A stretch of DNA of 63,428 nt, the filler included, from Collodictyon triciliatum (Eukaryota): assembly GCA_043381765.1 (NCBI GenBank). It is 3 parts of 3 records of this genome, joined end to end, with 100 filler letters (N's around TTAATTAATTAA, not from the genome) between each part and the next. Parts side by side here need not be neighbours in the genome. Positions count along the whole stretch, not along the records: positions 1 to 19,038 come from JBHJMP010000265.1; positions 19,139 to 49,558 come from JBHJMP010000266.1; positions 49,659 to 63,428 come from JBHJMP010000268.1. One strand, 5' to 3'. This document shows positions 10,654 through 54,273 of this stretch, piece after piece (positions within the stretch are counted from its first letter, which is position 1; each line of letters opens with the position of its first letter). Below the pieces are notes generated by a model. The model was given only the letters and a program-made list of their open reading frames with translations, did not search any database and had not been told where the DNA came from. The translations under genes were made by a program, and so were the position numbers.

Positions 10654-13193
10654 GGTCATCGCAGAATCCTTGTTTGTGAACATAAGGAAAATTCGGACAG
10701 CCTCCTCTGCTATAATCCCAGGTTCTCTCGACTGGATGACAAGCAACCAGATTATGGCAAACGTGGCATGGAGAGAAACAAAAAACGAAACGAAACGAAA
10801 CAAAACAAAACAAAACAAAACAGACAGACAAAAAGAAAAAGAAGCAGGTATGTGTAACGAAAAAGAAAAAAAGGAGAAAAAAAACAGAAAAAGAACAGCA
10901 CACAAGAAACTACAATTCAGGGAGACAGGTGTGTAGGAAGATATAAGCCGTAATAAAATGGTTGAGTCTTCACCTCGTAAACGTAACAAGCGTCGATGGC
11001 GCCGTACTTTGTGCACTCTTCCTCAGTCTCTGCCTGCAGTTCCGAATCAACCTCTCCAGGACCAACCATGTTCTGCATTAACGTCCGAGTTCGATAAAGA
11101 TGTCTCGCATTTTCATGAAAAACAATAAAATCACAGACATGAACGAAAAGAGGGGATAAGAGCAGTGAATAGAGCAAGAGATATTTTCACCTTCAGGACG
11201 ATGACCCTGGATGTTGGTCCGCGAATTATCGAGCCGGAGCGCGATACCCCAACTTCCGCTTTGGAAATCAAACTTCGCATCAGAACATTTGGTTTTCATT
11301 TATTTCTTGGGTTGTTATGTATTGTGAAAAAACTTGAATAGCGAACATCACATTTTAATCATTTGCCATCTTCAAACGGTTTTTTTTTTTTCATACCAGC
11401 TTCAAGAGCAGACCCTGTGCCAGGCAGGGATGCATTATCTGGCACAATCATGGCTGCCCGTCCAGGAACTTTTTTGGCCACAAGTGCATTGGTGATGCCT
11501 TGCTCCTGCTTTCCAAGACCTTGGATAATCAAATATTGTAATTATAATAAAGGTTCATAGACCACCAACGATATGAACCATATTGAAGAGACTAAAAATA
11601 AAAATAAAAATAAAAATAAAAATAAAAATAAAAATAAAAATAAAAATAAAAATAAAAATAAAAATAAAAATAAAAATAAAAATAAAAATAAAAAAGTAAA
11701 GAGAGAGAGGTGTATTTCCATATCTGTAACGCACAACACAAATAGCAACAACAATGGTATTTTTTTTCCTTTATTCGATTCAAAGAGCAACAACAATGGT
11801 ATTAATTTAATAGTAAAACCTTGTCCTTCTTTCCAGCCCATTTTCATCATCATTTTTTGAGCGATTGATTCTTTTACAGCAGGTTTGCTACATGTTTCCC
11901 AGATAAGATATTTTGGTGTAGCAAACATTCGCAGGTGGACAGTACAGCGGAAACAAGGATAAAAAAAAAAAAACTTACGAAGCGTTTGATGAATCTTCTA
12001 CAGTAACTTCTTGTTGAGATGAAGTTGACGCATCTTTCCCGGATAGCATAGCACGGCGACGAAATGCCTCGTCCCCAGATAAAGGTTTGCCACTTGGGAA
12101 GATAATTTTTTTTTTATTAATTGAATTCTTTTTAATTTTTTTTTTTTTAAAAAAAACAAACAAACAAAAAACCAACAACATCAACAAACGTATGGGTATG
12201 GTGTAAATATGTAAAGTAAATAAAGCTTGTTAACACCTCTGCGCACTTTTGCTCGATTGACCTTTCATCAGTTCTTCCATGATTTTCCGTTCGATCTCTA
12301 GATTATATATGATACCATCGTCTCTAAAGCCATCTCTTGCACACTTTCTGGAAACATAAAATTGAATGTCGCATAGAATCTCAAAAATGACGCGATGAAA
12401 CCTTGTTTTTGCCTCTCCTGCCTTCTTCGCTCTGCCATCTGTATTTTTTCTTCAACATACTCATCATAATCATTGGGTCGAGCAGGGTCATATATGTCTT
12501 GGATGTCTCTGGTCATGGTCAAAAAGTCTGCGACAACATCAACCTGCGACCGTGACAAAATACCATTAGAAATAAGTTAAATGAAAAACGAAGCGAAGGA
12601 GTCTGAATAAATGAACACACGAATACACGAATACACGAATACACGAATACACGAATAAACGAATAAACGAATAAACGAATAAACGAATAAACGAATAAAT
12701 CCATAAATCCATAAATCCATAGATGGATACGATGATATATAAATAATAAATCAAACTAAGACAATTTAAGGTGACGTATCCACAAATCCATACGAAGTTG
12801 CTGAAAAGATAATACGGAATATAAGGTAAAAGAATAAAAGGACAACAGTGCCTCTTCGTCGCTGGACCCATCTACTCCTTCGTCGGAACGGTTAAACCCA
12901 TCACGCACAACATCGTCCTCCTCGTGAATAACTCTGACAGTTGATTCTTGTGCGCCATCCTCGGCAGAAACTGCTGGCTTTCGAGATACGGCAGATGGGA
13001 CAGCGCGAAGAACTGAAGCAGCAACCGAGTTGCTTGGCGCCGGCGTCACGGACTTCTTAAGAAGGGCGACCGGAACAAACTTTGTGGCGGCAGCAGGACG
13101 ACTCTGGGAAGCTGACAAGGACAACATCTTAATCATAAAGCCCTTTCACCAATACGCATATAGACATATGAAAGATAATCATTAGGAAAGATA

Positions 13194-13254
<61 letters not shown>

Positions 13255-13255
13255 N

Positions 13256-13307
<52 letters not shown>

Positions 13308-13541
13308 AACATGCGCTCGTCTATGGTCAGAAAGAGATATGAAAGTAGGCAAACGTGTTGCAGAAGTGGGCTTTGCTGTTTGCACAGAAAATGTAGCAGG
13401 TTTCTTGTCGGCGGCTGAGTCAGCCTGAACAGCACTCGCTGGTGGAGGCAAGTCAGACAGCAGCGAGAACCCGAGCGGATTCGGCCCTGTGGCAGTGTTA
13501 GACTTTTTCGGAGGCGGCAGATCGTCGTAGAGGCCCGGCAT
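10654..13541 (-). CDS. RBM17: Splicing factor 45 (G-patch + UHM); last exon probably lies in the 10253-10595 gap
   Basis: MPGLYDDLPPP; YDPARPNDYDEY; SGDEAFRRRA; G-patch IAQKMMMKMGWKEGQG-LGKQEQGI; UHM NMVGPGEVDSELQAETEEECTKYG...EAVRIF. Confidence 0.9.
11744..11803 (-). mobile_element. Family B micro-insert with 18-bp TSD (RBM17 intron)
   Basis: AGCAACAACAATGGTATT (11744-11761), then T6-CCTTTATTCGATTCAAAG, then AGCAACAACAATGGTATT (11786-11803). Confidence 0.9.
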
Positions 13542-13619
13542 GATAATCACCTTCTTGCAGACGGAGTTAGTCGCATTGGCCAGGAAACAAGAGACAAGAG
13601 CGCAGATAAGACACTTGCG

Positions 13620-13770
13620 AAAGTAAAAAGTAAAAAGTAAAAAGTAAAAAGTAAAAAGTAAAAAGTAAAAAGTAAAAAGTAAAAAGTAAAAAGTAAAAAG
13701 TAAAAAGTAAAAAGTAAAAAGTAAAAAGTAAAAAGTAAAAAGTAAAAAGTAAAAAGTAAAAAGTAAAAAG
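13620..13770. repeat. (AAAAGTA)n microsatellite
   Basis: Directly visible. Confidence 0.95.
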
Positions 13771-14308
13771 AAAAAAAAAAGTAAAAAGAAAAAAGAAAAA
13801 AGTAAAATGAAAAAAGAAGAAAAGAAAAAAAAGAAAAAAAAGAGAAAAAAGAGAAATGTACAAAACGTCTGTGCAGCCAACAGTTTAACCTTTCCCCAAA
13901 AACAAGCAGCTGAAATAAATTAAAAAAAAAAAAAGACTGATTAAGCCCAAAAAAAGCGAGAAAAACAGACAGAGTTGCGGCCTTTCGGTTTGTGGGGGTC
14001 AATACCACGAGCAGGTGATGGATTGCGCTCCACAGCGTGTTTATACGGCAACGAAGACAGACACGCGAACTGGTCGCCCTGCACCAGTCACCTGCCCTTG
14101 GCCCCGACGCCGAGACGAGCACAGTACTTGCCTGCGGGATGCTGCGAGGAGAAGGGATGTGGAAGGGAAAGAAGATGACGGACGAAGGCAAAAGAAAAGG
14201 AAGGGGAGGCATGACAAAGAAAAGGCTTTGGGTTGAGGGCGCGGGCACGACAGGCTTCCCAAAGCACGCCCAGGCGTTCAGGTCTATGCGATTGGCAAGG
14301 GCAGGCGT

Positions 14309-17300
14309 CTAGACCGCAAGCTCCGGAATGTTCTTGTAGAACTCGAGACACCTTTGGGAGTGCAAATTGGCCGCGTCAGCGCCTTGGGCTTTCATGCAAA
14401 ACACATAGAGTTGGGCAGGGACTTTCAAGGCGGGATGTCTTACTCTGGGTTGTTGAGAGCCTCGATGTTGTCGACTTCTTGCCCGTGGATAATGCGCTTA
14501 ATGGCGATTTCGACTTTCTTAAAGTTCACGGTGTACTGCGGATTGATATTAACGGTTCGGTTGTGAATGACAGGGTGATGCTCCGTAAAAGAGGCGCATG
14601 GGTGAGAGGCTGCTTTGGTCGTTGATATTATGATGGCTTGAATCAAGTTGATAACCCTGAAAGACTATTTACATACCGGGATGTCGGCCACGGGCAGGAT
14701 GATTGCTGCGAGATTAGGAATTTAGGTTGCTGCGAGGACAGGTGAATGGGATAGATAGTGCACGGACAGTATGGAGAATGTGAGGTTACATGGGACGTGT
14801 CTCGCCGAAAGGTGTTCCCGAATAGAAACGCGCAACTTCGAGACAAGTTCTTGGGTGAAGGGATGCTCCTGGTTGCGTGCAAGAAGAATGTTAGCGGGAT
14901 TGTATATATTTACATAATTGCGAAAGATTGACATGAGAAAGTGACATCGAATAAAGGGGAATAAACATGAAGGAGTGTCACGTGTATGACTGCCTGACTC
15001 ACTGGTTTCATTTTCAAGAACAGGATGACTCTTTCGTCGCTGCCTACTTGCTGACCAACAGCCACACTGTCGAGTATCTCGTGGAAATTGGCAACTAATT
15101 CAAAGTGTATAAAGTATGATTGGCTTGTTGGGAGCACATAAAAAAAAAAAAAAGACAGAGACAGAGGATGAAAAATTATCCCAAATAGCATCTATCAGCA
15201 TCATACCGACATCGTACAACTCGGAGCTTCCAAACCGAATGCCAGCGGGATTCAGAGTAGCATCGCTATATTAGCGCCAGATGATTTGTTGGCACAGTAA
15301 AGACAAGAAAAAAATTAAAAAAAAAATAACAGTGATAAGAGAAACCGAGTCGTAAGAGCATATTGCCAAATCGAAGAAAGGAACACGTTTTAAGCCTCCA
15401 ATTAACCTGCGGCCAAGCATCACAACACCCAAAGTGGCAGTGTTTATCAGAACGAAATCGCCATGGACCCAGATTCCTGCATAAGAATAGGAAAATATGT
15501 AGAATGAGGATATATACACAAAGAAATGATAGCTATAGCTCATAAAACAAAAGAAAACAAAGAGAGACAAGGATGATGCGACATTTTATTTCTCGACGGT
15601 ACCTTTGGGGTTATTGAAGTAGGCTTTGTGATATTTGACACCATCCTCATCTTTCCAGAAGAATACAGGCTGCGAAGGGAAGGGCTTGGTGCAGACCAAA
15701 TCACCGCGTTCGCCAGTGATAGGGTTACCTGTAATACTCATCACAGTAAGTCAGAGAGAGAGAAAAATGGGATAGAGACGAAGAATGAAAAAAAAAAACA
15801 ACTTATATAGCTAATAACAAATAAAAAAAAAAAACACCCTTTCCGTCGAAAGCGTATATGGCCATCCCAAGATTCGGTGATTGGATCTCCCCTCTGTACA
15901 CAGGGAGCATGGGATTGGAGCCAGCGAAGCATGAAATTAAATCAGTGCCGCCACTGATGGAGCCAAGAAGAACGTCTTTCTTGACAAAGTTGTAAATAAA
16001 GTCGAATCCCTCGTTCGCAAGGGGAGACCCAGTAGAAAGAACCGCCCGCAAGCTTGTGAATTGATGGCTTTCAACTAGTTTGTCAAGGACACATGAGGAA
16101 TGCTCCAATCTTATTCTCTGTGGAAAGTACTTCGGCACGCAGTAATGATAAATAGAGGGAGAGAGAACATATTGGACTAACAAATAAAAATAAAAATAAA
16201 AAAAAAAGGCTACTAGGCTTCACGTCAGCAGCCTCCACTGAGGCGATAAACTTTGCACTGGTGCCAAAGATCGTCAGGTCCAGTTCGTCAATTAGATCGA
16301 ACATAGCTTTTTTTTTTCAAAAAAAAATGTGAATGTTTATCTCTAAAGAGCTATTCAGAGAAAGGATAAGGGACTATTTTAACCATTGAAACGATCAGAA
16401 TCAAATTAAAGTACATTACTAACCTTGAGGCGAGGGATAAAATGGAGAACCATCATACAAAACAATGGTGCTTCCAATTGCTAGGCCTGACACAAGCCAG
16501 TTCCACATCATCCAGCCAGTTGTCTGGTATGTTTTCATTTTAGTTGGAATACAATTTCTTCATTCTGATTAGGAATCTTAACAGGTAACCAATCGGTAAT
16601 AAGGACGAATATGCTTGCGGAAGGTGGATGGCCAGAGCACAAGAGAATTAAATAAATGAGAGGTAAACCAAGAATAATAATAAAAATTTTTTTAGAAAGA
16701 TACCGTATAAAAGAAAAGTCTGTCGCTTCTGCGAAGATCAGAGTGAAAAATGTGCTCCTTGATATGTTGGATAAGGGTACCCTAATAGATAAGCAGAAGA
16801 GGATATCGATGGTATGTTGGCATGAAACAATATGAGTTGCGATAATACTAAATAAAATATGGAGAAATCGTACTCCAGCAGAGTGAACGATGCATTTAGG
16901 CAGCCCAGTGGTTCCCGATGAGTACAAAATATAAACGGGGTGATTAAAAGGAAGCTGCTCAAAAATCAAAGGAGGGATTGCATCTGCAGGACAGTATTTA
17001 TCCAGAAATTGTTCGTAGGATATCCTTAAATTATGATTAATTATGTAATCAAGTCTTGCATGTCATACTTTGATACTTGAGTAAATATGTCACAAAACGT
17101 GACGTTTTTTTTAACCGAATGAGGCACACGTGTATGGGTTTGTTTTTTTTTTTTTTCATTTTTTTTCAAAGCACATATCACAAGTAAATAATTGACAATA
17201 ATCTTCTTACGATTTGTTGATGCACGAGAAGTCAACAACGGTATCGGCAAAGGGAACCATCACAACATGATCTAAGTTTGTCAACCCTATAGATAATTCA

Positions 17301-18846: not shown

Positions 18847-18938
18847 TTCACTGGCCTTGCGCTTTGGTTGGCTAATTTTCAAAAGGGACCTGGGAGGAGT
18901 GGCTGGCTGTGAGGCAAAGAAAAAGACAGAAAAAAGAG

Positions 18939-19037
<99 letters not shown>

Positions 19038-19038
19038 A

Positions 19039-19138
19039 NNNNNNNNNNNNNNNNNNNNNNNNNNNNNNNNNNNNNNNNNNNNTTAATTAATTAANNNNNN
19101 NNNNNNNNNNNNNNNNNNNNNNNNNNNNNNNNNNNNNN
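19039..19138. other. Artificial contig-joining spacer (N44 + TTAATTAATTAA + N44)
   Basis: Exactly 100 nt with a six-frame-stop palindrome at 19083-19094; the same structure occurs at 49559-49658. Confidence 0.95.
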
Positions 19139-19192
19139 TTTGTTTTGTTTTGTTTTGTTTTGTTTTGTTTTGTTTTGTTTTGTTTTGTTTTG

Positions 19193-19223
<31 letters not shown>

Positions 19224-20180
19224 GAGTCCGTGCACTCTAGGTTAGCGAGCCATAGGCGAAGAATAAATTTTATTATTATTATTATCATTACTGTCTTTTG
19301 TGCGCAGTTAATTGTGTCTTCATTTTGTTATTATTGCGCATGGAAAGGTTTTTTGGTCGAAGTAGGGAGAGGTGCCTGTGGTTTGCTTGATGGCTGTGGG
19401 GCAGGCTCACCATAATGGCCGCAAGCAGAAACCCAGCGATCTGGACTCTTCTACCCACGCACCATTTTTGGCAGCATGGTGTTAGTTTAATCATTTGAAA
19501 ATTTGTCACACGGTCGCAGGTATGACCAAGGATGACGTGGCAGCAGGACAGAATAAGTAAATATATATCTATATTTAATATCATTATAATATTATACTAG
19601 ACACTAAGATAAAATCCATAGATCCAATAAATATGTATTATTATAAATTCCATACTTAAAAATTATTTGTGGATATGATAATATTACATTGTGCAAAACA
19701 ACTATTATTTCTTATAGTGGATTTGTAAAACTTATATTCACGTGGAAATAATATAATATCAATACAGTACAAATTTATTGCACAAAAGGATAACACTAGT
19801 TGGTTACACTATGATGCTGCAGTTACACACACTTCCTTTCTAGCAACGGCGATGTTAATCAAAAATCGATTCTAGTCTTCTCCATCCTCCCCCTCACCCC
19901 ACAACCAAGGCGTTGCAAAAAAAAAAACCCCCCCTTCTGTCCCACCCGCCGAGTTCCACATTCCCACCCAAGAGAAGCCCACTCGAAGAACCCTCGGAAA
20001 GAGTTGTGAAGCGAACTTGCTGCTGCGGACAAACCTTCAAAGTCAGGCCAGACGACCCCAGTCTTATTTGCCGAGAAAACCAAGAGCCCTAAACTTTCCG
20101 AACGAAAGAGCCGCAGCTTAAAAAAAAAAAAAAACAGTAGAGAAGATTGTTTGTTACGACAAATATTGGGATACTTTAGC

Positions 20181-20410: not shown

Positions 20411-20505
<95 letters not shown>

Positions 20506-23102
20506 CTAGTTACTCCAATTTTTATAGCAATTTGGTCATTCTCCTGTTTGACTTTCTTTATCACTCGATTATCCTAATAGAGACAGCAGAGCAAACCGCT
20601 CAAGACTCAACCTCTTTGTTAAAATCGGCTATCGTTCGCATCGGAGATCAAAATGAGGTTTCCTTGGAAGACAGTGTCGAGCAACTTGTCGGTCTTGTTT
20701 TTGAGGAGGCACCAGAAAAACACCTCATTATTATCGATTGCATTCTAGATTCGTTAGTCTTACTTATTATTGTTATTTCTAATGCCATTATCATCATTGT
20801 TAATATTATTATTAAATCCTCCAATACACAATACCGTATATTTCTCGTTTATTTTTTAATTTTTATTCTAAACCATACACCCATGAAAGCGTTGAAATGC
20901 TACCACTGAAAACCCACATTTATGGAACCGTCGTTGGACTTCTGAATGTCAAGAGCTTTGAGCTTACTGGTCTTGTCTTGAAAAGTTTTTATGACAGGCT
21001 CCAATCTGCTTTAGAGGGGAGAGATACTGTTCGTTCCAAATTATTGGTATTTTTTTATTATTACATTATCAATACCTTCGTGGGGATAGTCTTTTTCTTG
21101 AATAATGAAAATATGACGAAGGGCTTAAAATGAAATGCAACTCGACATAAGACTATTCTTTTGCAATTTAACTGAAAACTCTTCTTTTTTTCTTTTGCCT
21201 ACAACGACCAAACATTAATTACAACACTCCCAGATCCGTTTTATTTCCGAACTTGTCAACAACTTTGTCGTACTCCCGAAAACGTTCTTTGATTTTTTAT
21301 CCCAATTCGTAAACGCGGCATTGGGGGGAGTTGACGAGAGCCTACTCTCTCCAGATCTTGTCACGAAGAAAGATGCTTATGCTCGTGCGGACTTTTTGAT
21401 TCACCTCGTCTTATTTGCCCTTCCATATGTAAGACCTGCTCTGTTATAATAACTAACAGCAATTAGTCATATACATTTCCCTCCTCCAGTCACCATTCTA
21501 AACGAGTCAATTATTTATCTGATTCTAGGTTGGATATCAGTTCAGCAGAAGGGACTATCAAAACCTCGATACACTAATGACAATGATAGACTCTTATTTT
21601 TCATCGCGTCCAGCCAGGTTAACAGAGATAATGTCTCCATTCTTCTTATCTGAAGAGGCAAGTTTTATCCTCCGATCAATTTTTAACGATTGTCCCAGTC
21701 GATAGAGGCCGGTTATAGTTGTGTTTTTTTTTTAAAAAAAAAAAGTTCGAAAGATACTGATATATTCCACCCATTACCTTTTAATATGCAGCCGTTGGAT
21801 CGATTATCCCACTTATTTAACTCCGTCAAGAAATGCCAAGAAAACGGTTGGGAGGTCTGTTCGTCAATAGATTTAGTACTTGGACAATTTGTTCCCTACT
21901 TTTCATTGTTGAGTCCATAACGGGCCCTATCAAAAAAAAAATCCCGACGTTGAGATAATCGAAATCTAAAATGCAATAGATTATGTCAGTTTCTCAACTC
22001 TACAAAAGATTTGGTGAAAAACTATCGTCTTCCTTACAGCATGAGTTGCCCTTATTTCGCCTCCCTGGAGAAGTATCTAACTATACATATGAAAAAATGA
22101 AAAGCTAAATTGCTTACAAAATCACATCTTGAATGGTTATCTTAATCTCTCGACCCAAGTTCAAACAACATTTGACGCGAGGGTCTAATTTTGAATATAA
22201 TCAATTGCAACCTATTTAGTCTCCACTTTTTAAGAGTGCCCTGCAAGTGTTCAAAATATTCGATGATGCCAAAGATGCGGTTTGTGCCTGATTTGAAAAA
22301 TGACTGTTGGACACAATCGTATATATCAGAGTGCCCAAACAAATTAAGCCAATTATGAATAGTTCTATTACAGGGGTTATGGCCAATGTCATGGCTCTAG
22401 GTGTCATAACCTTCACCATCTTGCACAAACTGATAGGAAGAATAAAAGAAAATGACATGACATTAGGTATATCACCCTATTGATCGAATTCTTCTTGAGG
22501 ACCAATTATTGGATACTATCTATTTCTTCAATGTATCGCGTAAGGAATGTGTGAAGCAAATCATGTCAATCGAAGTTCCTTATTCTTTCGAAGAAATTTT
22601 AATTGAGGTATATTCCTTTCATATGAATAAAATCTCAAATTTAAGATTAAGCCAACAAACAGCTTCTAATTTCACACTCACACTTTAATCAGACGATTCT
22701 GGGTCAATTGTTATTCCTACCCAACCCGGAATTCAAAATTTTATACTACCACGTTCTCCTCGGCGACTTGTGCCAACAGAATCAGTCACTTTATGGAGTT
22801 GTATCCATTGAAATATATATACTTATTGATACTCATCGATACTCATTTGCAGCCACCAATACATATGTTTATTGTTTGTTTATTCTTTCTTTCAATATAT
22901 ACATATGTTGTTAATTTAAAAGAGGGGGAAATCATGCTGTTATATCTTTCACCTACAAAGATTTACAAAGCTGTGACGACTCTATTCGAAAGACTAGGTC
23001 ATATGGACATTGAATGTATTGACAGGCTGGCTGATTTCTTCGGGTATCATCTATCAAATTCTGGATACAGATGGGATTGGCACCTCTAGTAAGTTCTATT
23101 TC

Positions 23103-23174
<72 letters not shown>

Positions 23175-25556
23175 TCTTCCTTTCAATTTTGTGCAGTAAG
23201 TTCTATTTCGTTATTTTAACTTATAACATAAAATGGGCGCACCCTTTTCTGGGCTTGAAATGGCTATCGATGTTGTGATTAGCAAATTAATGTTATATTT
23301 TTTTCCTTTTTTCGACTCAAAGAAATTAATGTTATATATTATGTTTGTCTCTCCTTAATAAATTATTCCAATTCATAGCACCAACTATGTTACCCAGCCG
23401 AACACCTTCCAGCACTACTTCATTCGGGAAAGCCTTGGTGCTCTACACTATCTACTTATCAGATCTAATTATAAAACTCTTAAATAAAAATGCGTATTCG
23501 CTAACTTTATATTAATACAAGGCGTTTGTGTAAATCTATCCTATCTGGATAGAATAAAACTGGCCATTCCAACAGCTTTTCACCAAGTCATCGAGGCACC
23601 AGCCCCTTTTAATTTCAAATACGAGAGAATTCGTATGCTATTTATCTTTCAAACATTATACCCAATCACCGATAATGTTGAGTTTTCTACTCTTATTATT
23701 TCATTTCCATTAGTTTGCTTTGTATGCCAGTCTAGGCGCATTTAGCATACAATTCCCCTTCCCTTTCGCTTATTTGGGCATACAAAATAATCAAAATCCC
23801 ATAAATACCGAACTGATCAGCATATGTATGATGTTTAGATGATAAGGATTCTAGTCTCTCTCATGAGCTGGTCAACCAAATCATTCACAAGCAAGCTGTT
23901 GATACTGTCGTAACTTGGTACTCAGAAATTTATACATATATAATAAAGGCAATCCATATAACAAATCTACAAAAACAAAACAGTCCGCCCCTTATTGGAT
24001 TTTAACGTAGCCATTTCCTAAACATAATATCTCAAAGTTTTTTTTTTCGCTTTGCTTATGGCTAATTTTCATAGGCTGAGGCGCGAACTAGAGAGTATAG
24101 ATTCTATGCGCCGTGTTGAAATAGTACTGACTGCGTGTTTCTTTTGCGGCAAGAAGAGCTTCAGCCATCTCTCTCATATCCTCGAGAGGTAGGAAGCCCT
24201 ACTATATTGTAACCAAATCGATGACATAACTGCTTCCATTCCACTTATGATTTAATCTGTCTTAATCTTAATTTGAACCAAATAAAGGATTTTTTTTTGT
24301 GTCTTAATCTTACTTTGAATATCACTCATCATTAGATATCAAAACTATTTGTGTGATGTTTCTTCGTCACCAGAGTGCAAGCTTCATGTTCTAAAATGCA
24401 TGCAAGAGTTTTGGGGAGAAGATTGGGTTCACCAGGTACCCACAATACCCGCGCAAAGGGAAACAATTTATAGCTATATTTTTTCCCTTCCTTTTCTTCT
24501 TTCTCTATTTGCCACCATTATATTTATGTAATGTTTGTTTTCGTAGGGTATAGTCATAGACCGACTCATGACATTCAGAATAGTTGACAACATCACTATT
24601 GTTCAGTGGCTATTCTCTGAGGCAAATACAGCGAACTTGGCAAAGTGATATGCTTTTTTTTGTTTTGTTTATGAGTTCATTCAACTTTTATTTTATGGCA
24701 GTCTTTTCGCATAAAGTAACACCTATACATTACCGTCGTCTTGACTAATTTTCTGTCTCCAGATACGAGTTGTGGAAAGCAGTCAACAATATCATCTCGA
24801 AAACACTTGGTCGATTTGACACCGTCTCAAAAGAATACGAGAAAAATTCCAAAATGGGTAAGAAACGGGGTTTATTTGGCCTTCTCTTATTCTTTTTCTT
24901 CTTTTTTTTTTAAGCTTGTGTAGAGGCTTGCGCGACATCCATCAAAATATTATTAACTACTTCGTCTCAATCTTGCAAATCTGAAATAAAAAGTTGAGAG
25001 AGGTGAACGACCACAAAGACTTCCCGAAATAGTCCGTCAAGCTCTCGATATGTCTCGACAAGAATTGAGCGATCTTTTCTCTTGCATCTTTACTGTACGT
25101 AGGAACTCGCCCTTAAACTACCTATACATCTACATGTTTCAACCTGGATCAATTTCACCTGATGTGCTTTTAATAGAATCTCGTTGAGATGCTCCACCGC
25201 ATATCCTCCTGCTTTGGTGAAGGCGAGCCCGAGCCCTTCTATTTCAGTGTTGCATCGAGACACTTCGTCTCCTTGAGTAGAAAGGTAGCACATATCATCC
25301 TGCGGTATCACCACAGAACTCGATGTCAACTACTTCATATTACATATTTATTATACCATCATAAGCTCCTGCCCTTTGATGACCGAGTTGTATGATTGAT
25401 ATACATACCCTAATTGTTCACTCAGAAGACTTTAATCGAAAACAGCACAAGACACCCCTCACCCCAATCCTCCCCGAGATAGAAGCCAAAATTACATCAT
25501 CAGGAACTGTGACCCCACAAGTCTCCGAGCTTCTGAAGAAAATCAAGACTATCTAA
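20181..25556 (+). CDS. NCBP1: Nuclear cap-binding protein subunit 1 (CBP80), many exons
   Basis: LPLKTHIYGTVVGLLN; HPIDRILLEDQ; MDIECIDRLADFFGYHLSNSGYRWDW; NLSYLDRI; GKKSFSHLSHILERY; IDRLMTFRIVD. Confidence 0.93.
23088..23212 (-). mobile_element. Family A micro-insert (LINE 3' tip + about 69-nt A tail) with 18-bp TSD at an NCBP1 splice donor
   Basis: AGTAAGTTCTATTTCGTT at 23088-23105 and 23195-23212. The insert's reverse complement GCACAAAATTGAAAGGAAGAATA(n) equals 3549-3571. Confidence 0.92.
23284..23337 (-). mobile_element. Family B micro-insert with 15-bp TSD (NCBP1 intron)
   Basis: AAATTAATGTTATAT (23284-23298 and 23323-23337) flanks T6-CCTTTTTTCGACTCAAAG, which has 2 mismatches to consensus. 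Confidence 0.85.
24258..24312 (+). mobile_element. Degenerate family B micro-insert with 13-bp TSD (NCBP1 intron)
   Basis: TGTCTTAATCTTA (24258-24270 and 24300-24312) flanks ATTTGAACCAAATAAAGG; the tail is replaced by a T run. Confidence 0.65.
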
Positions 25557-26894: not shown

Positions 26895-26974
<80 letters not shown>

Positions 26975-31644: not shown

Positions 31645-31741
<97 letters not shown>

Positions 31742-34700
31742 ATTTCTTCATTTCTTCATTTCTTCATTTCTTCATTTCTTCATTTTGTTTGTTTGTTTTT
31801 CTTGAATTTATCTTAACCATTGGCTTCCTATTTGTTTTTAAAAAAAAGAAACTCACCCTTTTTTTCATAGAATATTGTCAAGAACTTCTGTCTCTTAAAG
31901 CATTGACGGTGGATAGTGGTCTAGTCAAGATGAACCCCAATGTTCAATATCCTACCCTGATTTCAACAAACATGGACACCTTGGTAAGATGCAACGGGGT
32001 GCTCTCCTTGTAATAATTGTTTCTCTAAAATTTTATATGAAACAGATTTCCAGGAAAATTACTAGACTTGATCCTAAGACACGTGAAATACTACAAGCAG
32101 CCAGGTTTGAATGCTGATTTATGTTTACGTTTCTGCGTATTTCAATACTGTAAGGCTTTCAAATTCTGGCTCACGCATCATTTTTTTATAAACCAAATCT
32201 GAGGTGTTTCTCATCATGTATCCTCATGTGTTGCGTTATGATATTTCTAGCGCGTACGGCCTTGTTTTCCATTTGGAAGATGTATCAAATCTTATAGAAA
32301 CATCTTCTCCTGAGGAAATATCCGAACTTCTCCATCAAACTGCTCTTTTTTCGTTGTTGCATAAAGTTGCTAGGGATGATGTTTTCCGGTTCCAAAATTC
32401 TGTCACTAGAGATTCTATATGTAAGTCTTCATCACTAATTTGCACTATCGTAACATACTTGATTAAAAAATATATTTGGCTTGGATGAATCACATATTTT
32501 AAAAGCCCTGATTTTTATCTGCTAACATGCATTTTCAAAATAGATAACATGATTCCTGATTACGTAAGGAAAAATTACCACGAGAAGGTGGTGTTTCAAT
32601 ACGAGTCCAAAATGAAGAATTCACCCAAAAGAATGCCAGAAAAACTGGGCTATCATTATTCAGCAGGAGGATTTCATGAGAGGGCTGCACGTTTGCACCC
32701 TGAATTACTTCCTTTCATTTGTTTAAATCAATATTTGATTCACTCTTATGCTCTTAAGTTTTGTCCCTCCCTTCCCCATAACGCATAAGTTGCAAAAGAT
32801 ATTATCTTATTATTATCATTTTTACACTATGTAATATGGTAATAGACTACATGGGTATCGCTGCTGAGACTGCCTTTCAGTGGTGTGGGTTTACTGATGC
32901 CATACGGGTATCTAATGCAATTTTTTTTTAAAAAAAAAATAATAATAGTTGATATGTCGCTTAAAAGCCACTTACCTTCACCGCCCTCCTTCTTCCTTCT
33001 ATTTGAAAACAGATAATAAAGGAAAGAAAAGAAAAGGAGGGAAAATCCTGCTCATCATTACTTCGATCATATCAAGTCATATTATACTCTGTTAATACAA
33101 ATAACTGCATTTATCACAGCTCTTTCGTCAGGCCTTTCTATCTCTATCGAAGGTAGATAATCACATACAAGACCACTCACGGTCGAAAAGATGGATTTTT
33201 TTGAACGCAGAGTCACTTTACTTCAACGGGAACTTTGAATCTGCAAAACAGTGAGCAACAATTGGCCCTATATGCTCTATTAAAAAATTATGAGACCGCT
33301 TCAATTATGATAAGTTGTAATACAAATATTATTCTTCCTTTCAATTTGTGCGGAATGATGAGGATGGTAATGTTTGTGGTTTGTAATAGGGAATATATAA
33401 AATACTTGGATGCTGTTGGGTTCCGTACACCATCAACTTCTGGCATTTTCATGCTCAAATCCATCAAAATGCTGATTGGAGATATCTTGGATGTTTACAG
33501 AAATTCTCAACAATCCTCATCCAATCAAGTATCGCCGGTGGATGGCACTTCCTCAAAAATTTCAATTAGAGTTGAATCTCAATCACAACTTGATCATATG
33601 ATGATAATCCAGGGCCCATCAAATAAATTTGTGAACCGAAGATCATTTCTATATGTATCTGAAAAGTCTGAAGAAAGTTCATACGCATCATCAAAGTCCC
33701 TTACTATCAACACTCATTCGTCGATTATCAAGTCATGCATCAAAATTGCAAAAATATACATGCATAATAGAGATATGACAAAATCTCTTTACTACTCACT
33801 AAGAGCTAAGGGATTGTGCGAGTCACAGGATTTAGCAACCGATAAGCTGCAATCAATGGCTTTAATATCTTTGATAACGGATTCCATGAATCAATTTTGG
33901 ATTTCCAGGTTCGTCTCCCAATACTAATGCTTATTCTAATATTAATTTTTAGTTATATGCCCTGTCTGAATTAGTTGGAGAGCCAATATATTCAGTTCCA
34001 CCTTTTTGCTCAAGAATTTAGTGTGATAAACATACCATCATATGTATCACAATCCACAAATAGAATATACAGCCTCAGAACTTTTGATGTTTTGAAATCA
34101 AAGAACTTGTTCGACCTGTAAGCCCACATACTTTTCATATTTCTATGGCACACTTTCAGCCTACCATAATAATTAAATATCTCATTTAACGGTATCTGAA
34201 CGCGTGTAGACTGGATGATAGCAAAGAGATTATATCCACGGTCTGGTATACAACTATATCTCTTTGCTCACATGGGAAGTTTGAAGAATCCTCTGAGCAT
34301 TTGAAACAGGGGATTGAGTTCGCGGAAGCTTCCACAGACTTTGCAAACCAAGTGACCTTTCCTCAATCGTATTTTAAGACAAAAGTATCACATTGAACTC
34401 CTGGTTTATAGGATTATTTATTTTTCCATTTATTCGATTCAAAGAAGATTATTTTTATGGGATTCCTTTTTATTGTTTTTATTGTTTTTATTGTTTTTAT
34501 TGTTTTTATTGTTTTTATTGTTTTTATTGTTTTATTTTTCAATGAGAAAAAACAAAAATGAGATGCTTTTCTCGATATAATGCCCCATGTTAAAATAAAC
34601 CTCGTGATAGAAAAAGTATAGTAATCTACTCATCCATACATACGCCGTTTTAATATTATCTTCACCTTATTGTAGTTCAAGCTGTATACGATTCTTGGAA

Positions 34701-35850
34701 ACTACTACGGTGTCAAGGGCTCCCCAGATGAGTCTTTCTATTTCCTCGACCGGTCCCAGCTTTTGTCACTGGAGCTCGGCGATGTCAAGTATCAGATATG
34801 GTGCACCACCCAGAAAGCATCCATATATTCAAGATTTGGATTTGGGAATTATGAAGAGATTCGGCATAAGTGAGCTGAGATTCGGAGCTTCGAAATTCGA
34901 TCATAATTCGAAGTAATCATATAGTGATATAATCGCATTCAACTTACTCTCTCTTACAATATCGCTAGGCTGCTGTCGTTTTCAAAATACTATTCAAGCT
35001 CTCTGAAAAAGGAAAGAAGGATGGAAGACGACCTATACTTTGTTACCCTGTCGCTGATACTGAATCATCCGGTTTTTTCAAGAAAGGTACATAAGTGACC
35101 ACCACATCTTCATATTTAATGTCACCTTATAGTAGTAATCTTCTCTCTATAGACCGATTGAATGACACAGCAAGTTTTTATCCACATGAATCGAGCAAGA
35201 CACTGAACCACCACAAAATCAGATTCTCGAGTCAGTCTTGTCAGCCGGGAGGATAAAGTCCACATTCGAGTATGCTCCGGTGTCCTTTTCTGTACTGTCT
35301 GTCCTGCGCCATGTCTCGAAGAGTCGAAAGGACCAGGATGTCTTGACTGCCGCAGTTGTGCATTTACTAGAAAAGACAGAACTTGGCAATTCTTTCCCGG
35401 GACTAGCGGATGAGCTTAGTGATGAACTAGGAGACCTTAGTAGACCAGAAAAGGATACCAGGCTTGTGCGGTCTGTATTGGGAGTACTGGAAGCGCATTT
35501 TAAAGGGAGGGGATTCACCTTTCCAAGCATATTTCGGTGCTATGCATACCTTTATCAGATTGAGGGACGAACTCAGAGGGCGGATGAATTTTTTTACAAG
35601 TATTATTTTGTGTATGACAATAGACTAATTTTATTTTATTTTTCTAAACTTTTTTTTTTCCTTTATTCGATTCAAAGATTTTATTTTTCTAAACTAAAAG
35701 GCCAATCACCACTCTGGAGGAGCTTTCTTCAGCTTTGCAATTTTAATTTGGTATTCGACCATGCGTATGCAGAACAGAGGTGCATATAATATCTGTTTTT
35801 CAACCCACAATATATGCTTATCTGCGAAAATCGCTGCTTGGCTCCGATGA
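26773..35850 (+). CDS. Soluble adenylyl cyclase-like (ADCY10/sAC-type) protein: two class III cyclase domains, STAND-like P-loop NTPase, helical C-terminus
   Basis: C1 VLMLIDISGFTKM and VIKIAGDALLVVW; C2 RQFLMDDKG, IGCTSGRVYCGDIG, REYALVGDVVN; Walker A GPSGVGKS near 30600; GMPFAI; LGYHY. Start and last exon are uncertain. Confidence 0.85.
35633..35695 (-). mobile_element. Family B micro-insert with 18-bp TSD
   Basis: ATTTTATTTTTCTAAACT (35633-35650 and 35678-35695) flanks T9-CCTTTATTCGATTCAAAG. Confidence 0.9.
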
Positions 35851-36037
35851 ATATACCCACATACCCTCATACACACACAGGGGAGTATTATTTATCCCCA
35901 CAAATTCTATCTCAAACTAAGGAAATAAAAAAACAGAATAATTAATCAGCTCATTTGATTGTAACGAAGCATGCCGAAAAAATTGCTTAGTCTTTCCGAA
36001 TGTCATGCGGCTGGCTTTTTTGCTTCATTTTTTCTTC

Positions 36038-36352
36038 GTTTTTGATTTGTTTTTGATTTGTTTTTGATTTATTTTTTATTTGTTTTTGATTTATTTTTGA
36101 TTTATTTTTGATTTATTTTGATTTGTTTTTGATTTGTTTTTGATTTGTTTTTGATTTGTTTTTGATTTGTTTTTGATTTGTTTTTGATTTGTTTTTGATT
36201 TATTTTTGATTTATTTTTGATTTATTTTTCACTTTGAATCGAATAAAGGAAAAAAAAATTTTTTTTTGATTTATTTTTGATTTGTTTTTGATTTGTTTTT
36301 GATTTGTTTTTGATTTGTTTTTGATTTGTTTTTGATTTGTTTTTGATTTGTT
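36038..36352. repeat. 11-bp (TTTTTGATTTG/A)n array interrupted by a family B insert at 36230-36258
   Basis: Directly visible; CACTTTGAATCGAATAAAGG-A9 sits inside the array. Confidence 0.9.
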
Positions 36353-36465: not shown

Positions 36466-39400
36466 TTATCTTCTCGACTTCTCGGCCCACTCTGGGAAGG
36501 AGTCCAAGTCAATATCATACACCGCGACACCCAGGGTGTACATGCACCCAGTAATAAGAAACATGCCGATGATGTTCAGAAAGAATCCAGTATATGCCAT
36601 TTGGCGGATAGTCACTGTCCCTGATGTTTATTTAGAGTAAGAAAACACCATGAAGGAAGTAAAAAAATATTGCCGTTTTGCATATTTATTCTGCCTTACA
36701 TATATCTTATATTTTGAGAAAAATATATATATGTTTGAATTATTTGTAAACAAATCATGATCGATTGAAGAAGCGTATTTTTAACCATGTCTGCAAATAC
36801 ATCAACGCTCCTTATATCTCGGTGATATAATACGAGATAGGTACCTGTATTGTATGCGATTGCGTTGGGTCCGGTAGCGACGGGGAACATAAAAGCGTAT
36901 GACGCTGTTATCGTGGACGGGACCATTAGAAACCGCGGGTCGATTCCTGTTTTGTTAGAGAACAAGGTTTGAAAATGCAGAGAAACGGGTGTTTCAGATT
37001 TGGACAGTGTTCAGCTGAAATGACAAACAGTGGCTTATGTGTATAATTGGGTTGTGTCTCGTACTTATTCCAACGGCGAGCTCGGCAATTATCGGAAGAA
37101 ACAGAGCTGTTGCGGCCGTGTTTGAGACAATTTCGGTCAGGGACGCCATGAAAAAGGATATGAAAAACAAAATCCAAAATGGCGGAAGGAAGTCCACTTG
37201 GCTAAGGAAATCTCCGACGATTTTCGATAACCTACAGTTTGTGTGTGTATTGGATGTTCTCATTCATGTGCAAATTCACTCATGTATATTGATTTGATAT
37301 TTGCTATTTATTTTTATTTTAAGAGGCGGGTGGGAAGATGAGTGGATTGCAGTGCAAATAGTATGGCATATTTATTTGATTTACAATGCTTTTGTATTAG
37401 TGTTTTCTGGCCAAATCTATATTCATTTTGGTATGTGTTTTTTATGTTATATATTCTTTTGGTTTATTTTAACAGAAGATCAAAATGTAGTTACCCTGAT
37501 TTCTCAAACTCCCTTGATAATGCAAAACCACCGCCGACAAAGACAAACAACCCCCATGGCAGCGATTTTATGTCGTCTAATTCAAGAATCCCCTTTGGCG
37601 AGTACGGTTTATGTGGGATTATAGATAGGAGTATGCCCATTGCAATCTATTGTAAATGTCGATTCAGTTTAAATTATTATCGGCATCTTTACAAGATGTA
37701 TCGGAGACAAAAAAAACACTTATAAACATCTGAAATTAATCATATGAAGAAGTAAATCAGAAAAGCCTGGTTCTCAAATAAATATTAATCAACAAAGGTC
37801 ACTAAGTTTTGTATATGTATATAACTTACTGGCGGAGTGGAGTCAGTAATAAAAGGCGTCCAAGACCAGCCATTCATAAAATCTGGGTCTCTAAAAAACC
37901 ACAGGAACGCTGTAAATCCAAGAGCCATCAATACCACGCGCTCTGCAAACTTCATCGGACCGAGATTATGAAGCTGCAGTTGTATGTAAAGTCAGTTGTT
38001 TTTTTTAATCGAATAAAGGAATAAAAAAAAAACTCAACTTTATTTTTGTGAACGAGGAACACCATGAAAAAAAAATTTTTTTCATGCCATACACTTGCTT
38101 ATCTTTTTTTTTTTTTAAAAAAAAAAACCTGCTCCTTTAGTTCGGTCATATCTATGGCTGGAAGATTGTCCCTTTGCTTCCAACAGTATAGACGCACGAT
38201 GTATATCCATATTATTAAGTTGAACAGTACCATAGCTGGGACAGCAAAAAATGCCCAACGAGCGAAAGAGACCTGTTAGCAAAATTAATGGGTTTAATCC
38301 ATTTTATTTTCTAACATTGACTATTGTGTTCATGAAATGGAAAAGAAAATAGTCACGCAAAAATTTTATATTGAATTATTACCGAGGGAGCCCCTGGGAA
38401 AAGTTTGCTCAGTTGGCCAAGAAAAATGACTTGAGATATCTGAGTACGGATTATTGTTTTTATCATTATTGCTATTGCTGTTATTATTAGTATTCACTTG
38501 AGTACAAAAAGCAGACAAAAACTAAGGAAGCAAATATATAAACCAATAGCTTACGGTGCCCGTGAGGGTCGCAGTTCCCCCAACAGAATTCGCGTATGTG
38601 ACGGCAAGTATAAGTCCTGTGGAAAAAGATTGGAACGCATCACGGTGTGCATCTGTTTCGACTGTAGTTTCTAGCTTTTGGATAATAGCTGTGGCCATCG
38701 ATGTCTACATTGTTTTCACTCATTTAAAATGGGAAATTCTTTTATTCATAGGTACACGCGATGATGAATCCATTCAACTAAATACGATTTTTAATTAAAG
38801 AATTGTTGAGAAATGGACCATGATGAGGGATGTCGAAATGTTGTCAATCCACATGGACATGAAGCCAGATGCTACGATAAACGACATAATAATCCTTCTT
38901 GGGTCTGAACCCATAAAAGCAATGATGTTCAGTGCAATCCTTGTGTGCAGATCGAATTTTTCTGCCCCTTTCGCCAACATGCCTATAAAGCAAGGTAAAC
39001 TAAGTTCTTTTTGTTTAAGGTGATTAAGAAAAAGAAATGGTAAATTCACTACCAGTTTAATTCTATAGAGAAAAACTTTCATACCAAGGAGAGTATTTTT
39101 TTTGTTTGTCTCTTATTCAATTATTCCTCGTTATGAAATATGACATATGAAAAAATTAAAAAAACTAGTCCTTGAGAGAGAAGCTAACCTGACCCGATGA
39201 ATATAAACGATACATCATTGAAGTATAAACGGGTCACTTCCTTTCCGCTCATGAGGTCAAACATCGGGAAAAGGGCGATGGGAATTAAACTTATAATCTC
39301 CATCGGGATGGCTTCAGAAATCCTACAAAGTGATAAGTTCATTACAAGAAAGAATGGGAGAAATAAATGCAAATGTCTACCCATACGATTGAAGTACGAC

Positions 39401-52282: not shown

Positions 52283-53043
52283 TTTCCATATTTTTTTTTT
52301 CCTTTGGGACACACATAACCCCGTGCAAGCATGAGATTCGCGTCGCGTCGAACGTTAAGCGTCCATTGCTAGCAAAGCACTAATAAAATAAGAAAAGGCA
52401 TGAGATATACATAAAGAATTAATCTCATTTGAATTACTCTAAATACTTCCAGCACTTCACTTGCCCCACGAGTCTCACTCAGTTCGGTGGCAACCAATCG
52501 CACATAGCATCTCCGTTTCAGAGTCCAACTCCCTTTCAAAACGCCTCCCTTCACTTAAAGGAAACCCAGACATTTATCTTGGCTATGCACGATACGACAG
52601 ACGGGTTTAGAAGCGGTATCTCTTAGTGGCGACAGAGCAAGAGAAGTGAAGAGAAGATAACAAGCGGGAAGAGCGAGAACGAGAGAAGCAACGAGAAGAA
52701 AAGACGGTTTTGTTGTTGGGCATGTGTAAATCGTTGGATGAAAGGAATGATAAGAATGATGGAGTGTGGTTATGGCTGCGGCTTCATCACGCAAAGAGAT
52801 NNNNNNNNNNTTTTCTTTTTCTTTTTCTTTTTCTTTTTCTTTTTCTTTTTCTTTTTCTTTTTCTTTTTCTTTTTCTTTTTCTTTTTCTTTTTCTTTTTCT
52901 TTTTCTAAATCTTTCTTGAAATTGGCAAATGCACTGACAAAAGATGCGAATTTAGTAAAATATACATTTGTATTGGCTAAGGTGACGAAAAGTATGATTA
53001 AAAAGTGTGATATATGACTCCTTCTAAATATACTTAAAGAACT

Positions 53044-54273
53044 CACAGCTATTAATGCTTGAGTTCCAGCCTGTCTCATTGGCATCGCGCGTTCCAATGA
53101 CCTGTGCTGGGAAGTCATCCGTCCACGCGGATCTGCAAGATGGAGGCATCAGCTTCCGAGCTGAAATCTCGACCTAATTTCATGCACTGTTAATAACTTG
53201 CAAGTTAAGGAGATGCGAAGAGGAAGATCTGGAAACGTGATGATAATGATGATGATAATGATACTGATACTGATAATGATACTGATAATGATACTGATAA
53301 TGATACTGATAATGATAATGAAAATGATAATGATAATGAAAATGAAAATGATAATGAAAATGATAATGATACTGATAATGATACTGATAATGATACTGAT
53401 AATGATACTGATAATGAAAATGATAATGAAAATGATGATGATAATGATAATGATAATGATAATGAAAATGATAATGAAAATGATAATGATAATGATAATG
53501 ATAATGAAAATGATAATGATAATGAAAATGATAATGATAATGATAATGAAAATGATAATGATAATGATAATGATAATGAAAATGATAATGAAAATGATAA
53601 TGAAAATGATAATGATACTGATAATGATACTGATAATGATACTGATAATGATACTGATAATGATACTGATAATGATACTGATAATGATAATGATAATGAT
53701 AATGATAATGAAAATGATTTTTTTCCTTTATTCGAATGAAAATGATAATGAAAATGATAATGAAAATGATAATGATAATGAAAATGATAATGATAATGAT
53801 ACTGATAATGATACTGATAATGATACTGATAATGAAAATGATAATGAAAATGATGATGATAATGAAAATGATAATGAAAATGATAATGAAAATGATAATG
53901 AAAATGATAATGAAAATGAAAATGAAAATGAAAATGAAAATGAAAATGATAATGAAAATGATAATGAAAATGATAATGAAAAGGAAAAGGAAAAGGAATA
54001 AAAGTAAAGTAAAAATAAAACAAATAAAAAGAATTTCCAATTAATCATCGAATTATGCCCAGGAGGAAAAAAAAAGGACGAAATTAGAATGAATGGAAAC
54101 AAATGGTAGAAGCGAATAGAAGAGGAAAGAGAATATATATATATATATATGAAAAGTGAGAACACGCAACGGCAGAGCAACCTGCAGCAACTGCATTTGA
54201 TCAGCCCGCTCGTCAGCCATTGCATCGTCCCACTGCAGGACATCGGCCACGCCAGCAGACGGCTCCGGATTCA
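53044..54273 (-). CDS. Putative 5' part of a small or unknown gene truncated near the gap at 52801
   Basis: MNPEPSAGV...QMQLLQ|gt, then a microsatellite intron, then ag|VEISARKLMPP...SSINS|gtgag. Splice sites and phase fit, but I recognise no family. Confidence 0.35.
53238..53998. repeat. Compound (GATAAT/GAAAAT/GATACT)n array interrupted by a truncated family B insert at 53719-53734
   Basis: Directly visible; T6-CCTTTATTCG is embedded in the array. Confidence 0.9.

Follow-up and report, generated by a model that had tools for sequence, protein, structure and literature searches.

In human L1 (LINE-1), truncated copies span a wide range of lengths with a mean near one kilobase, and the consensus for the first nick of L1 is a T-rich|A step. 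SINEs receive their promoter-bearing head from tRNA, 7SL or 5S. Among the SINEs named in the literature surveyed, the shortest was Platy-1, of about 100 bp. In stringent-type LINEs, the reverse transcriptase (RT) is reported to recognise a 3' stem-loop (PMC5135761). For Zorro3, an L1-clade LINE of Candida, the published report describes an RT that leaves its template early or switches, producing joints with or without non-templated bases (PMC3510499).

The window analysed here, a stretch of 63,428 nt from Collodictyon triciliatum (assembly GCA_043381765.1), contains micro-insertions built on an 18-nt motif (family B). These share with 5'-truncated L1 insertions the A-tail, the variable duplications of 15-18 bp and the T|A first nick. 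The likeness extends to the body, which corresponds to a LINE 3' end; relatives of that LINE possess an endonuclease (EN), an RT and a Cys-rich C-terminus. In contrast to human L1, 13 of the 14 placeable copies of family B and of a sibling LINE (family A) are shorter than 60 nt, and five end at one base beside a specific pentamer. Like the SINEs that borrow a LINE 3' tail, family B is short, non-coding and A-tailed, and would depend on a LINE protein whose RT uses that 3' end. Unlike a SINE, the 18-mer has no internal pol III promoter and no tRNA, 7SL or 5S head, and there is a gradation from it to longer LINE copies. What is always retained is the final few tens of nt of the 3' UTR, as is expected for the recognition signal of a stringent-type LINE; however, no stable stem-loop is predicted in the family B tail. 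The truncation points described for Zorro3 are heterogeneous and derive from an experimental assay (PMC3510499), whereas in family B the end that recurs in the genome lies 18 nt before the tail. A full-text literature search brought up no paper on 18-nt retroposons or on LINE ends recurring within a few tens of nt of the tail, which is weak evidence that the phenomenon is unpublished, as most subscription journals were outside its scope.

Hallmarks of target-primed reverse transcription

The 18-mer CTTTGAATCGAATAAAGG gave 10 matches in the window (up to 3 mismatches), four of them exact, against 0.10 expected. Shuffles averaged 0.10 matches, with never more than 1, and none of 100 reached 10. 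The initial annotation had listed about 11 copies, and for ten of these sites the coordinates agree with those found here (Table 1). The remaining one, at 14947, is unsupported, being only an 11-nt match with neither tail nor duplication. The copy formerly placed at 50051 has a 43-nt body starting at 50026. At 36230 the body begins 2 nt before the 18-mer, and the copies at 38007 (13 nt) and 53725 (11 nt) are shorter.

Table 1. Positions and structure of family A and family B copies in the window (coordinates along the whole stretch)
Feature	Position	Strand	Structure	Anchored exact duplication (bp)
Family A 5'-truncated fragment, about 0.74 kb	2854..3591	+	C-terminal part of ORF2, with zf-RVT and one in-frame stop; 3' UTR; A-rich tail	
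Family B micro-copy	11744..11803	-	18-nt body 11768-11785, exact consensus; A6 tail 11762-11767	18
Duplications of the 11744..11803 copy	11744-11761 + 11786-11803	-	18 bp	
Family A micro-copy	23088..23212	-	About 23-nt body and A-run of about 66 (23106-23194); 18-bp duplications	
Family B micro-copy	23284..23337	-	18-nt body 23305-23322, 2 mismatches; A6; 15-bp duplications 23284-23298 + 23323-23337	15
Family B doubtful or aberrant copy	24258..24320	+	18-mer 24271-24288, 3 mismatches, then A, T9, G; no A-tail	13
Family B older copy	34413..34444	-	18-nt body 34427-34444, 1 mismatch; decayed tail; decayed duplication only, by eye	0
Family B micro-copy	35633..35695	-	Exact 18-nt body 35660-35677; A9 tail 35651-35659	18
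Duplications of the 35633..35695 copy	35633-35650 + 35678-35695	-	18 bp; first nick TTTT|A	
Family B 20-nt copy	36214..36274	+	36230-36249 = CA + 18-mer, CA matching the parent; A9 tail	16
Family B shorter copy	38007..38032	+	13-nt body AATCGAATAAAGG and interrupted A-tail; duplication not found	0
Family B older copy	43017..43048	-	18-nt body 43031-43048, 2 mismatches; decayed tail; adjoins GAAAGAG-type repeat	0
Family B 43-nt copy	50011..50090	+	Body 50026-50068; A7 tail; 15-bp duplications 50011-50025 + 50076-50090	15
Family B short copy	53695..53760	-	11-nt body 53725-53735 and A6, inside ATCATT-type microsatellite	11
Family A micro-copy	60015..60089	-	41-nt insert 60032-60072 including tail; 17-bp duplications	

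Flanking duplications of 13-18 bp, reported earlier for five copies, were exact at six of the ten family B sites. By comparison, at least 13 bp was reached in 3.2% of 19,518 random-site trials, mostly inside microsatellites (binomial p of about 2e-7, own arithmetic). With the 11-bp one at 53725 included, an exact duplication was present in seven of the ten copies, and the other three had none. At 24271 the duplication measures 13 bp; including the CTTTGAA of the target would lengthen it to 20 bp with one mismatch. The 16-bp duplication at 36230 is weak evidence, since this copy sits within a TTTTTGATTTR tandem repeat, and the duplication at 53725 (11-18 bp) has ambiguous limits because of the microsatellite repeat.

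An A-tail of six to nine residues directly follows GG in six of the ten copies (11768, 23305, 35660, 36230, 50026 and 53725). The tail is interrupted at 38007, decayed at 34427 and 43031, and occupied by a T-run at 24271. The first nick was T|A in five of the six clean sites of families A and B and C|A in the sixth, with the A-tail blurring the boundary by 1-2 nt. The contexts originally described for two of the nicks, TT|AA at 11803 and TTTT|A at 35695, were confirmed. A-tails, duplications of 15-18 bp and T|A first nicks are together in good agreement with the L1-like target-primed retroposition that had been proposed. A motif-blind scan for a short insert with A-tail and duplication gave seven matches with duplications of at least 15 bp outside tandem repeats (a status judged by eye), and all seven were copies of one or the other family. 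No such match came from the reversed-sequence control.

A LINE as the source of the motif

The family B 18-mer is identical to the last 18 nt of a LINE located on the metagenome contig L023. This contig was the only true relative among 95 stretches obtained in a metagenome scan with the exact 18-nt pattern, the other 94 being chance or bacterial matches. Positions 50026-50077 of the window are 100% identical over 52 nt to L023, and the 5' end of that copy is again CTTTG. On L023, an ORF2 C-terminus with a zf-RVT-type motif is followed by a stop, a 3' UTR of about 150 nt that ends with the 43-nt stretch, and A10. The contig is cut at 1,157 nt and has a frameshift between its two ORFs. Its ORF displayed 53% identity over 76 aa to the family A fragment of the window, in which zf-RVT was matched at E 3.4e-8. 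It had been stated that no parent element is present in the window; this is correct for family B, but a fragment of a sibling LINE with the same habit occupies 2854-3591. The micro-copies can be regarded as a habit of the LINE group, because family A has also left tiny duplication-flanked tails.

An exhaustive protein search revealed 14 matches, four of them of 1,226-1,275 aa with Exo_endo_phos and RVT_1 domains and, in three of the four, zf-RVT. EN and RT were observed only in the relatives P0009-P0012, about 30% identical, L023 itself showing the ORF2 C-terminus. The best PDB match of P0009, the sole relative tested in this way, was human LINE-1 ORF2p (3.4e-57). A further fragment, P0022, was collinear with residues 772-1055 of P0009, just past the RT domain. 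A word-based protein search for longer relatives returned 403 candidates, none of which scored. With the 18-nt pattern, the genome contig collection gave four matches, all in coding-like context of bacterial MAGs, and the viral contig collection gave none. Sequencing runs matching words of the stretch were mostly freshwater metagenomes (12 listed, best share 0.11), and habitat, strain or expression cannot be inferred from such shares.

The family B motif is not a stand-alone 18-nt element, because copies of 20 nt, 43 nt and at least 1,046 nt carry the upstream bases of the parent. Two origins were considered at the outset, a defined tiny RNA and a LINE with a fixed end point 18 nt before its tail. 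The second is supported, as L023 ends in exactly the 18-mer after the ORF2 C-terminus; a tiny RNA cut beforehand, for example by host defence, is possible but doubtful.

The non-random 5' end

Five copies (11785, 23322, 34444, 35677 and 43048) start exactly at the C of CTTTG. The initial annotation had counted six copies sharing the (C)TTTG start; the sixth, 24271, may be one of them but is ambiguous, with a T-run in the position of the tail and a target that itself reads CTTTGAA after the duplication. The bodies of the nine scorable copies measured 18, 18, 18, 18, 18, 20, 43, 13 and 11 nt. The probability of at least five of nine ends at one position was 1.0e-4 (uniform 11-43), 6.8e-4 (uniform 11-30) or 2.5e-3 (geometric). 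Within the 1,046 known nt of the parent, CTTTG occurs only twice, at -18 and -43. One copy (36230) ends at -20 instead of -18. The non-random 5' end is real on a small sample of 9-10 copies, one window and one parent contig, and the earlier view that the shared end does not arise from random truncation is supported.

We consider it highly probable that the motif represents the terminal 18 nt of the 3' UTR in an L1-like LINE, with an ORF2 comprising an APE-type endonuclease, an RT and a C-terminal zinc-knuckle, and that it is inserted by target-primed reverse transcription with a preferential end after CUUUG. The LINE protein would nick the target at a T|A step and prime on the A-tail of the LINE's own RNA, of which only the tail end would be copied. 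Joining of the short cDNA after a second nick 15-18 bp away would then generate the body, the oligo-A and the flanking duplication. Most insertions of the LINE group would end within the first 11-43 nt, and those of family B preferentially right after the copied template pentamer CUUUG, at -18 (five copies) or -43 (one copy). The stop would most probably result from release of the RT or of the RNA/cDNA hybrid once the first U-tract in the template has been passed, because rU:dA pairing at the terminus is weak. Joining of the cDNA end ...CAAAG would follow, sometimes aided by TTTG in the target. The copies of family A (about 23 and 33 nt, two older ones of about 35-45 nt by eye, and about 740 nt) have no recurrent end, and its tail lacks CTTTG. 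These varied ends fit a motif-linked stop, yet they provide no independent replicate.

RNA structure, which had been suggested as a cause of the stop, is not favoured. A possible 5-bp stem at the 3' end could be drawn by eye, but single-sequence thermodynamics gave a minimum free energy of 0 kcal/mol for the 24-nt RNA and z-scores of 0.07 (50 nt) and 0.02 (133 nt), and the hairpin was rejected as a stable structure. A splice site, an initiator-like start and self-cleavage by the endonuclease were also considered for the CTTTG end and rejected, as there was no AG acceptor, the nick contexts differed and nothing spoke in their support.

Alternatively, the template itself may already be short, an explanation that we regard as possible but doubtful. 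The LINE mRNA would be cut or 5'-trimmed to a 3' fragment starting with CUUUG (18 nt plus A-tail, rarely 43 nt), from which the RT runs off. A sequence-preferring endoribonuclease, small-RNA-guided slicing or an exonuclease stalled at bound ORF2 protein could be responsible. Run-off from a defined RNA end predicts what is seen in five independent insertions, namely identical joints and no target microhomology. The whole inserts, 24-29 nt long, are in line with such a template, and a cutting enzyme could read a motif like CTTTG, at whose only two occurrences in the parent both recurrent ends are found. However, a search of L023 against Rfam 15 (both strands, E up to 1) detected no ribozyme and only two weak lncRNA matches elsewhere in the contig. 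Moreover, the RNA has no stable fold that might retain a protein or stop an exonuclease, and the 10 nt upstream of the two cut sites differ, so that slicing at both could not be directed by one guide RNA.

The 5' end could also be chosen at the joining step. In such a case cDNAs of many lengths would be made, and those ending in ...CAAAG would join best through TTTG in T-rich targets, by microhomology-mediated 5' joining. In four of seven family B sites (by eye: 11744 side, 23284 side, 24301 and 36275), a TTTG starts between -3 and +2 relative to the second nick, against a background of 8.8% (p of about 0.002), in a post hoc test, as the interval was chosen after the data had been seen. At 24271, the target has CTTTGAA at the very position expected for the start of the body. 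At least four copies (23322, 35677, 50026 and 43048), however, combine a full CTTTG with an unrelated target end and hence have no shared joint bases, and TTTG was present at neither of two family A sites. A choice at joining is judged improbable.

A comparably low probability is assigned to ordinary random 5' truncation by an RT of very low processivity, the pile-up at 18 nt being a matter of chance or detection. Only nine copies are available, the tails of family A end at varied positions, and a first search with the full 18-mer favours copies of at least 18 nt. Against a detection effect, searches with sub-motifs of 10-13 nt brought in nothing beyond the copies of 13 and 11 nt and the match at 14947, which is unsupported. 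Under the three null models the p values for the clustering are 1e-4 to 2.5e-3, and the only other long copy coincides with the second CTTTG.

A self-standing micro-SINE, in which one or a few master loci would express an 18-nt RNA and its encoded A-tail, driven for instance by a promoter lying upstream, for copying by the LINE machinery in trans, could account for the uniform 5' end, for the 18-mer being the stretch of LINE RNA needed for recognition by the RT, and for the T-run after the 36230-36258 copy as a pol III terminator; it is nonetheless very unlikely, given that an internal promoter cannot fit in 18 nt, that the longer copies hold the LINE's own upstream bases, that an 18-mer master gene leaves the CTTTG start of the 43-nt copy unexplained, that the T-run at 36259 is part of the duplicated target repeat and that no Rfam family was matched.

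Possible consequences for the genome

Tentatively, the preferential end after CUUUG may point to a LINE whose usual product is a programmed 18-nt 'strong-stop' micro-insertion, CUUUG either setting the cDNA end or marking a host cut in the LINE RNA. If true, the genome would be peppered with tags, about one per 5-6 kb in the window, each with an AATAAA signal and an A-run. Such tags would escape standard repeat finders. Were a host nuclease or slicer responsible for the cut, the tags would constitute a genomic record of defence against LINE RNA.

Should the pile-up at -18 prove to be genome-wide, it would represent a natural sequence-defined stop in target-primed reverse transcription. It would also offer a handle on template exit by the LINE RT and on the 5' joint, the least understood step, and would show that repeat annotation can miss a large share of LINE activity, given products of 24-50 nt. 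Should it not, ordinary extreme 5' truncation of an L1-like element would be at hand. The inserts add AATAAA and an A-run within introns and microsatellites, and so could seed premature polyadenylation sites and new A-rich repeats. The copy at 43031 is intronic and antisense, since the exons on either side of it encode TIG domains of a gene on the plus strand.

Retroposition footprints in the window

The 18-mer CTTTGAATCGAATAAAGG was matched ten times in the 63,428-nt window at up to 3 mismatches, four of these matches being exact, whereas shuffling the window produced 0.10 matches on average and never more than 1. Nine N-runs and abundant microsatellites are present in the window, which is draft eukaryotic scaffold sequence. 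Duplications were measured for each copy after orienting it, anchored at the junctions and counted only when exact. At least 13 bp were found at six of the ten family B sites, against 3.2% of 19,518 trials at random sites, nearly all of them within tandem repeats (p ~2e-7 by our own arithmetic).

A motif-blind scan was also run on short inserts that have a terminal A-run of at least 5 and a direct repeat on both sides, tandem repeats being sorted out by eye. Outside tandem repeats, seven hits showed a duplication of at least 15 bp, and all seven belonged to family B or to its sibling LINE, family A. The reversed-sequence control gave no hit above 13 bp. The inserts are genuine retroposition footprints and neither an adapter nor an assembly artefact, and the family B micro-insertions proposed in the initial annotation are real. 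Ten of the annotated loci were kept, 24271 as a doubtful one, with some limits corrected: the copy placed at 50051 begins at 50026 and has a far longer body, that at 36230 gains two nucleotides, and those at 38007 and 53725 are shorter. The copy listed at 14947 was left out, as it is an 11-nt match with neither tail nor duplication.

Positions and duplications of family B copies (named by the lower coordinate of the body), family A copies and adjoining tandem repeats
Feature	Position	Duplication (bp; exact only for family B)	Body (nt)	Remarks
Family B copy	11768	18	18	
Family B copy	23305	15	18	
Family B copy	24271	13		excluded from 5'-end counts
Family B copy	34427	0	18	
Family B copy	35660	18	18	
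Family B copy	36230	16	20	two extra bases, CA
Family B copy	38007	0	13	
Family B copy	43031	0	18	
Family B copy	50026	15	43	
Family B copy	53725	11	11	
Family A fragment	2854-3591 (+)			~0.74 kb, 5'-truncated; zf-RVT, one in-frame stop, A-rich tail
Family A micro-copy	60032-60072	17		
Family A micro-copy	23106-23194 (-)	18, perfect	~23	uninterrupted A-run of ~66
Older family A copy	22411-22453			
Older family A copy	33327-33366			
Tandem repeat at 36230	36000-36350			TTTTTGATTTR units
Tandem repeat at 53725	53150-54050			ATCATT-type units
Tandem repeat at 43031	42950-43030			GAAAGAG-type units

Copy 24271 (24258-24320, +) has 3 mismatches and carries A, T9 and G in the A-tail position. Its joint is ambiguous by 7 nt because the target after the duplication reads CTTTGAA; if these bases are counted, the duplication reaches 20 bp with one mismatch. 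The locus may reflect joining through microhomology, or else a small duplication of unrelated origin. At 17144-17171 (-), CTTTGAA is followed directly by an A-rich run and no duplication was seen; the match could be due to chance or represent an internally deleted family B copy.

Origin from an L1-like LINE

A metagenome collection was scanned with the final 14 body nucleotides followed by A4. Judged by their flanks, 94 of the 95 stretches retrieved were unrelated and one was a relative (contig L023, 1,157 nt). Its minus strand holds, in order, a 202-aa frame that is open at the contig end, 133 more aa beyond a frameshift, a stop codon, a 3' UTR of ~150 nt, the same 43 nt as window positions 50026-50068, and A10; the identity to the window copy is 100% over 52 nt. 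The frame displays the Cys...Cys...His...Cys motif of zf-RVT and shares 53% identity over 76 aa with the window ORF 2812-3201, which matches zf-RVT at 3.4e-8. Searched exhaustively with HMMER, 1.84 billion representatives yielded only 14 relatives, among them seven fragments (59-98% identity) and four full-length proteins (1,226-1,275 aa, 29-38% identity). All four full-length proteins contain Exo_endo_phos and RVT_1, and three contain zf-RVT. Compared with solved structures, one of them (P0009) matched human LINE-1 ORF2p best (3.4e-57), followed by R2 proteins (1e-23), and the fragment P0022 aligned collinearly with the region just after the RT domain. Judged by the layout of L023, its zf-RVT motif, the domains of the relatives and the P0009 match, an L1-like LINE ends at its 3' side in the 18-mer. 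EN and RT, observed in the relatives, are putative for this element, whose sole contig, L023, is short. The interpretation in the initial annotation is partly supported: the point near the tail of a LINE was retained, and a tiny element standing on its own was dropped. Its statement that the window lacks a parent element holds for family B, although a sibling-type fragment is present; no other LINE coding sequence was found in the window.

The family A tail is unlike the family B tail in sequence, yet alignable to it. Thirteen of the 14 placed copies of both families are shorter than 60 nt. All the A-tailed inserts with target-site duplications found in the window derive from these two tails and none from other RNAs, a pattern consistent with each element copying its own RNA; tiny tail copies are a habit of this LINE group. 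The family A micro-copy at 23106-23194 lies 105 nt from the family B copy at 23299-23322.

LINE 5' truncation, A-tails, duplications and occasional 5'-joint microhomology are textbook features. In the literature covered by full-text searching, no account was found of LINE ends that recur a few tens of nucleotides before the tail, nor of retroposed units only 18 nt long, and the shortest named retroposon met was Platy-1 (~100 bp). Family B was classed as an unusual, sequence-linked product of ordinary machinery.

The fixed 5' end and its possible cause

The 5' ends were counted on nine scorable copies, 24271 and 14947 being left out, so that five of the six annotated shared starts stand, all at exactly 18 nt. 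These five have different flanks and 0, 0, 1, 2 and 2 mismatches; since flanks and ages differ, they are separate events. The probability of at least five of nine copies at one position was 1.0e-4 and 6.8e-4 under uniform nulls (11-43 and 11-30 nt, respectively); with a geometric null fitted to the mean it was 2.5e-3. Shorter sub-motifs revealed no hidden crowd of shorter copies in the window. CTTTG is likewise the start of the 43-nt copy, and the motif occurs exactly twice in the 1,046 nt of known parent sequence, at -18 and -43 from the 3' end of the body, before the A-tail. Six of the seven copies reaching 18 nt start at one of these sites, the exception starting at -20; the end is therefore linked to sequence and not to distance alone. 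The fixed 5' end is significant on small numbers.

The preferred explanation is that the RT or the hybrid would come off right after the first template U-tract is copied: the enzyme first meets a U run, UUU, at -17 to -15, and the next lies at -42 to -40. In the main rival explanation, the template would have been cut or trimmed in advance so that it begins at CUUUG, and run-off from it would yield the same joints equally well. No Rfam family, ribozymes included, was matched in L023. RNA structure, put forward in the initial annotation, found no support as the cause of the stop, since no stable hairpin was found at the family B tail (minimum free energy of 0 for the 24-mer, z-scores near 0 for longer stretches) and a 5-bp stem drawable by eye was unstable on folding.

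The stop boundary is unlike the nick contexts; the annotated T-rich|A sites were confirmed, with T|A in five of six first nicks. Microhomology at the 5' joint was absent in at least four family B copies. At the second nick, TTTG or (A/C)TTTG lies at or beside the position in four of seven family B sites (11744, 23284, 24301 and 36275), against a background of 8.8% for TTTG (p ~0.002, post hoc). Such target bases are the complement of the end of the 18-nt cDNA, which suggests, as a post hoc hint, that annealing of this ...CAAAG end to the target sometimes contributes to setting the duplication length.

Genomic setting

The intronic location was supported for at least one copy, 43031-43048, which is flanked on each side by a TIG-domain exon and runs antisense to that gene. 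Three family B copies are held in or adjoin microsatellites, and T-rich repeats may be favoured insertion targets. N-runs at 7909-8008 and 46035-46134, as well as the fillers between records at 19039-19138 and 49559-49658, sit within microsatellites, which places assembly gaps at repeats; tiny copies could be hidden in such gaps. The public sequencing runs found contained at most 0.11 of the sampled window words per run. A 1,267-aa open frame at 55047-58850 (-) consists almost wholly of EPQTHE-like hexapeptide repeats, and a further open frame, acidic and of low complexity, occupies 58861-59982.
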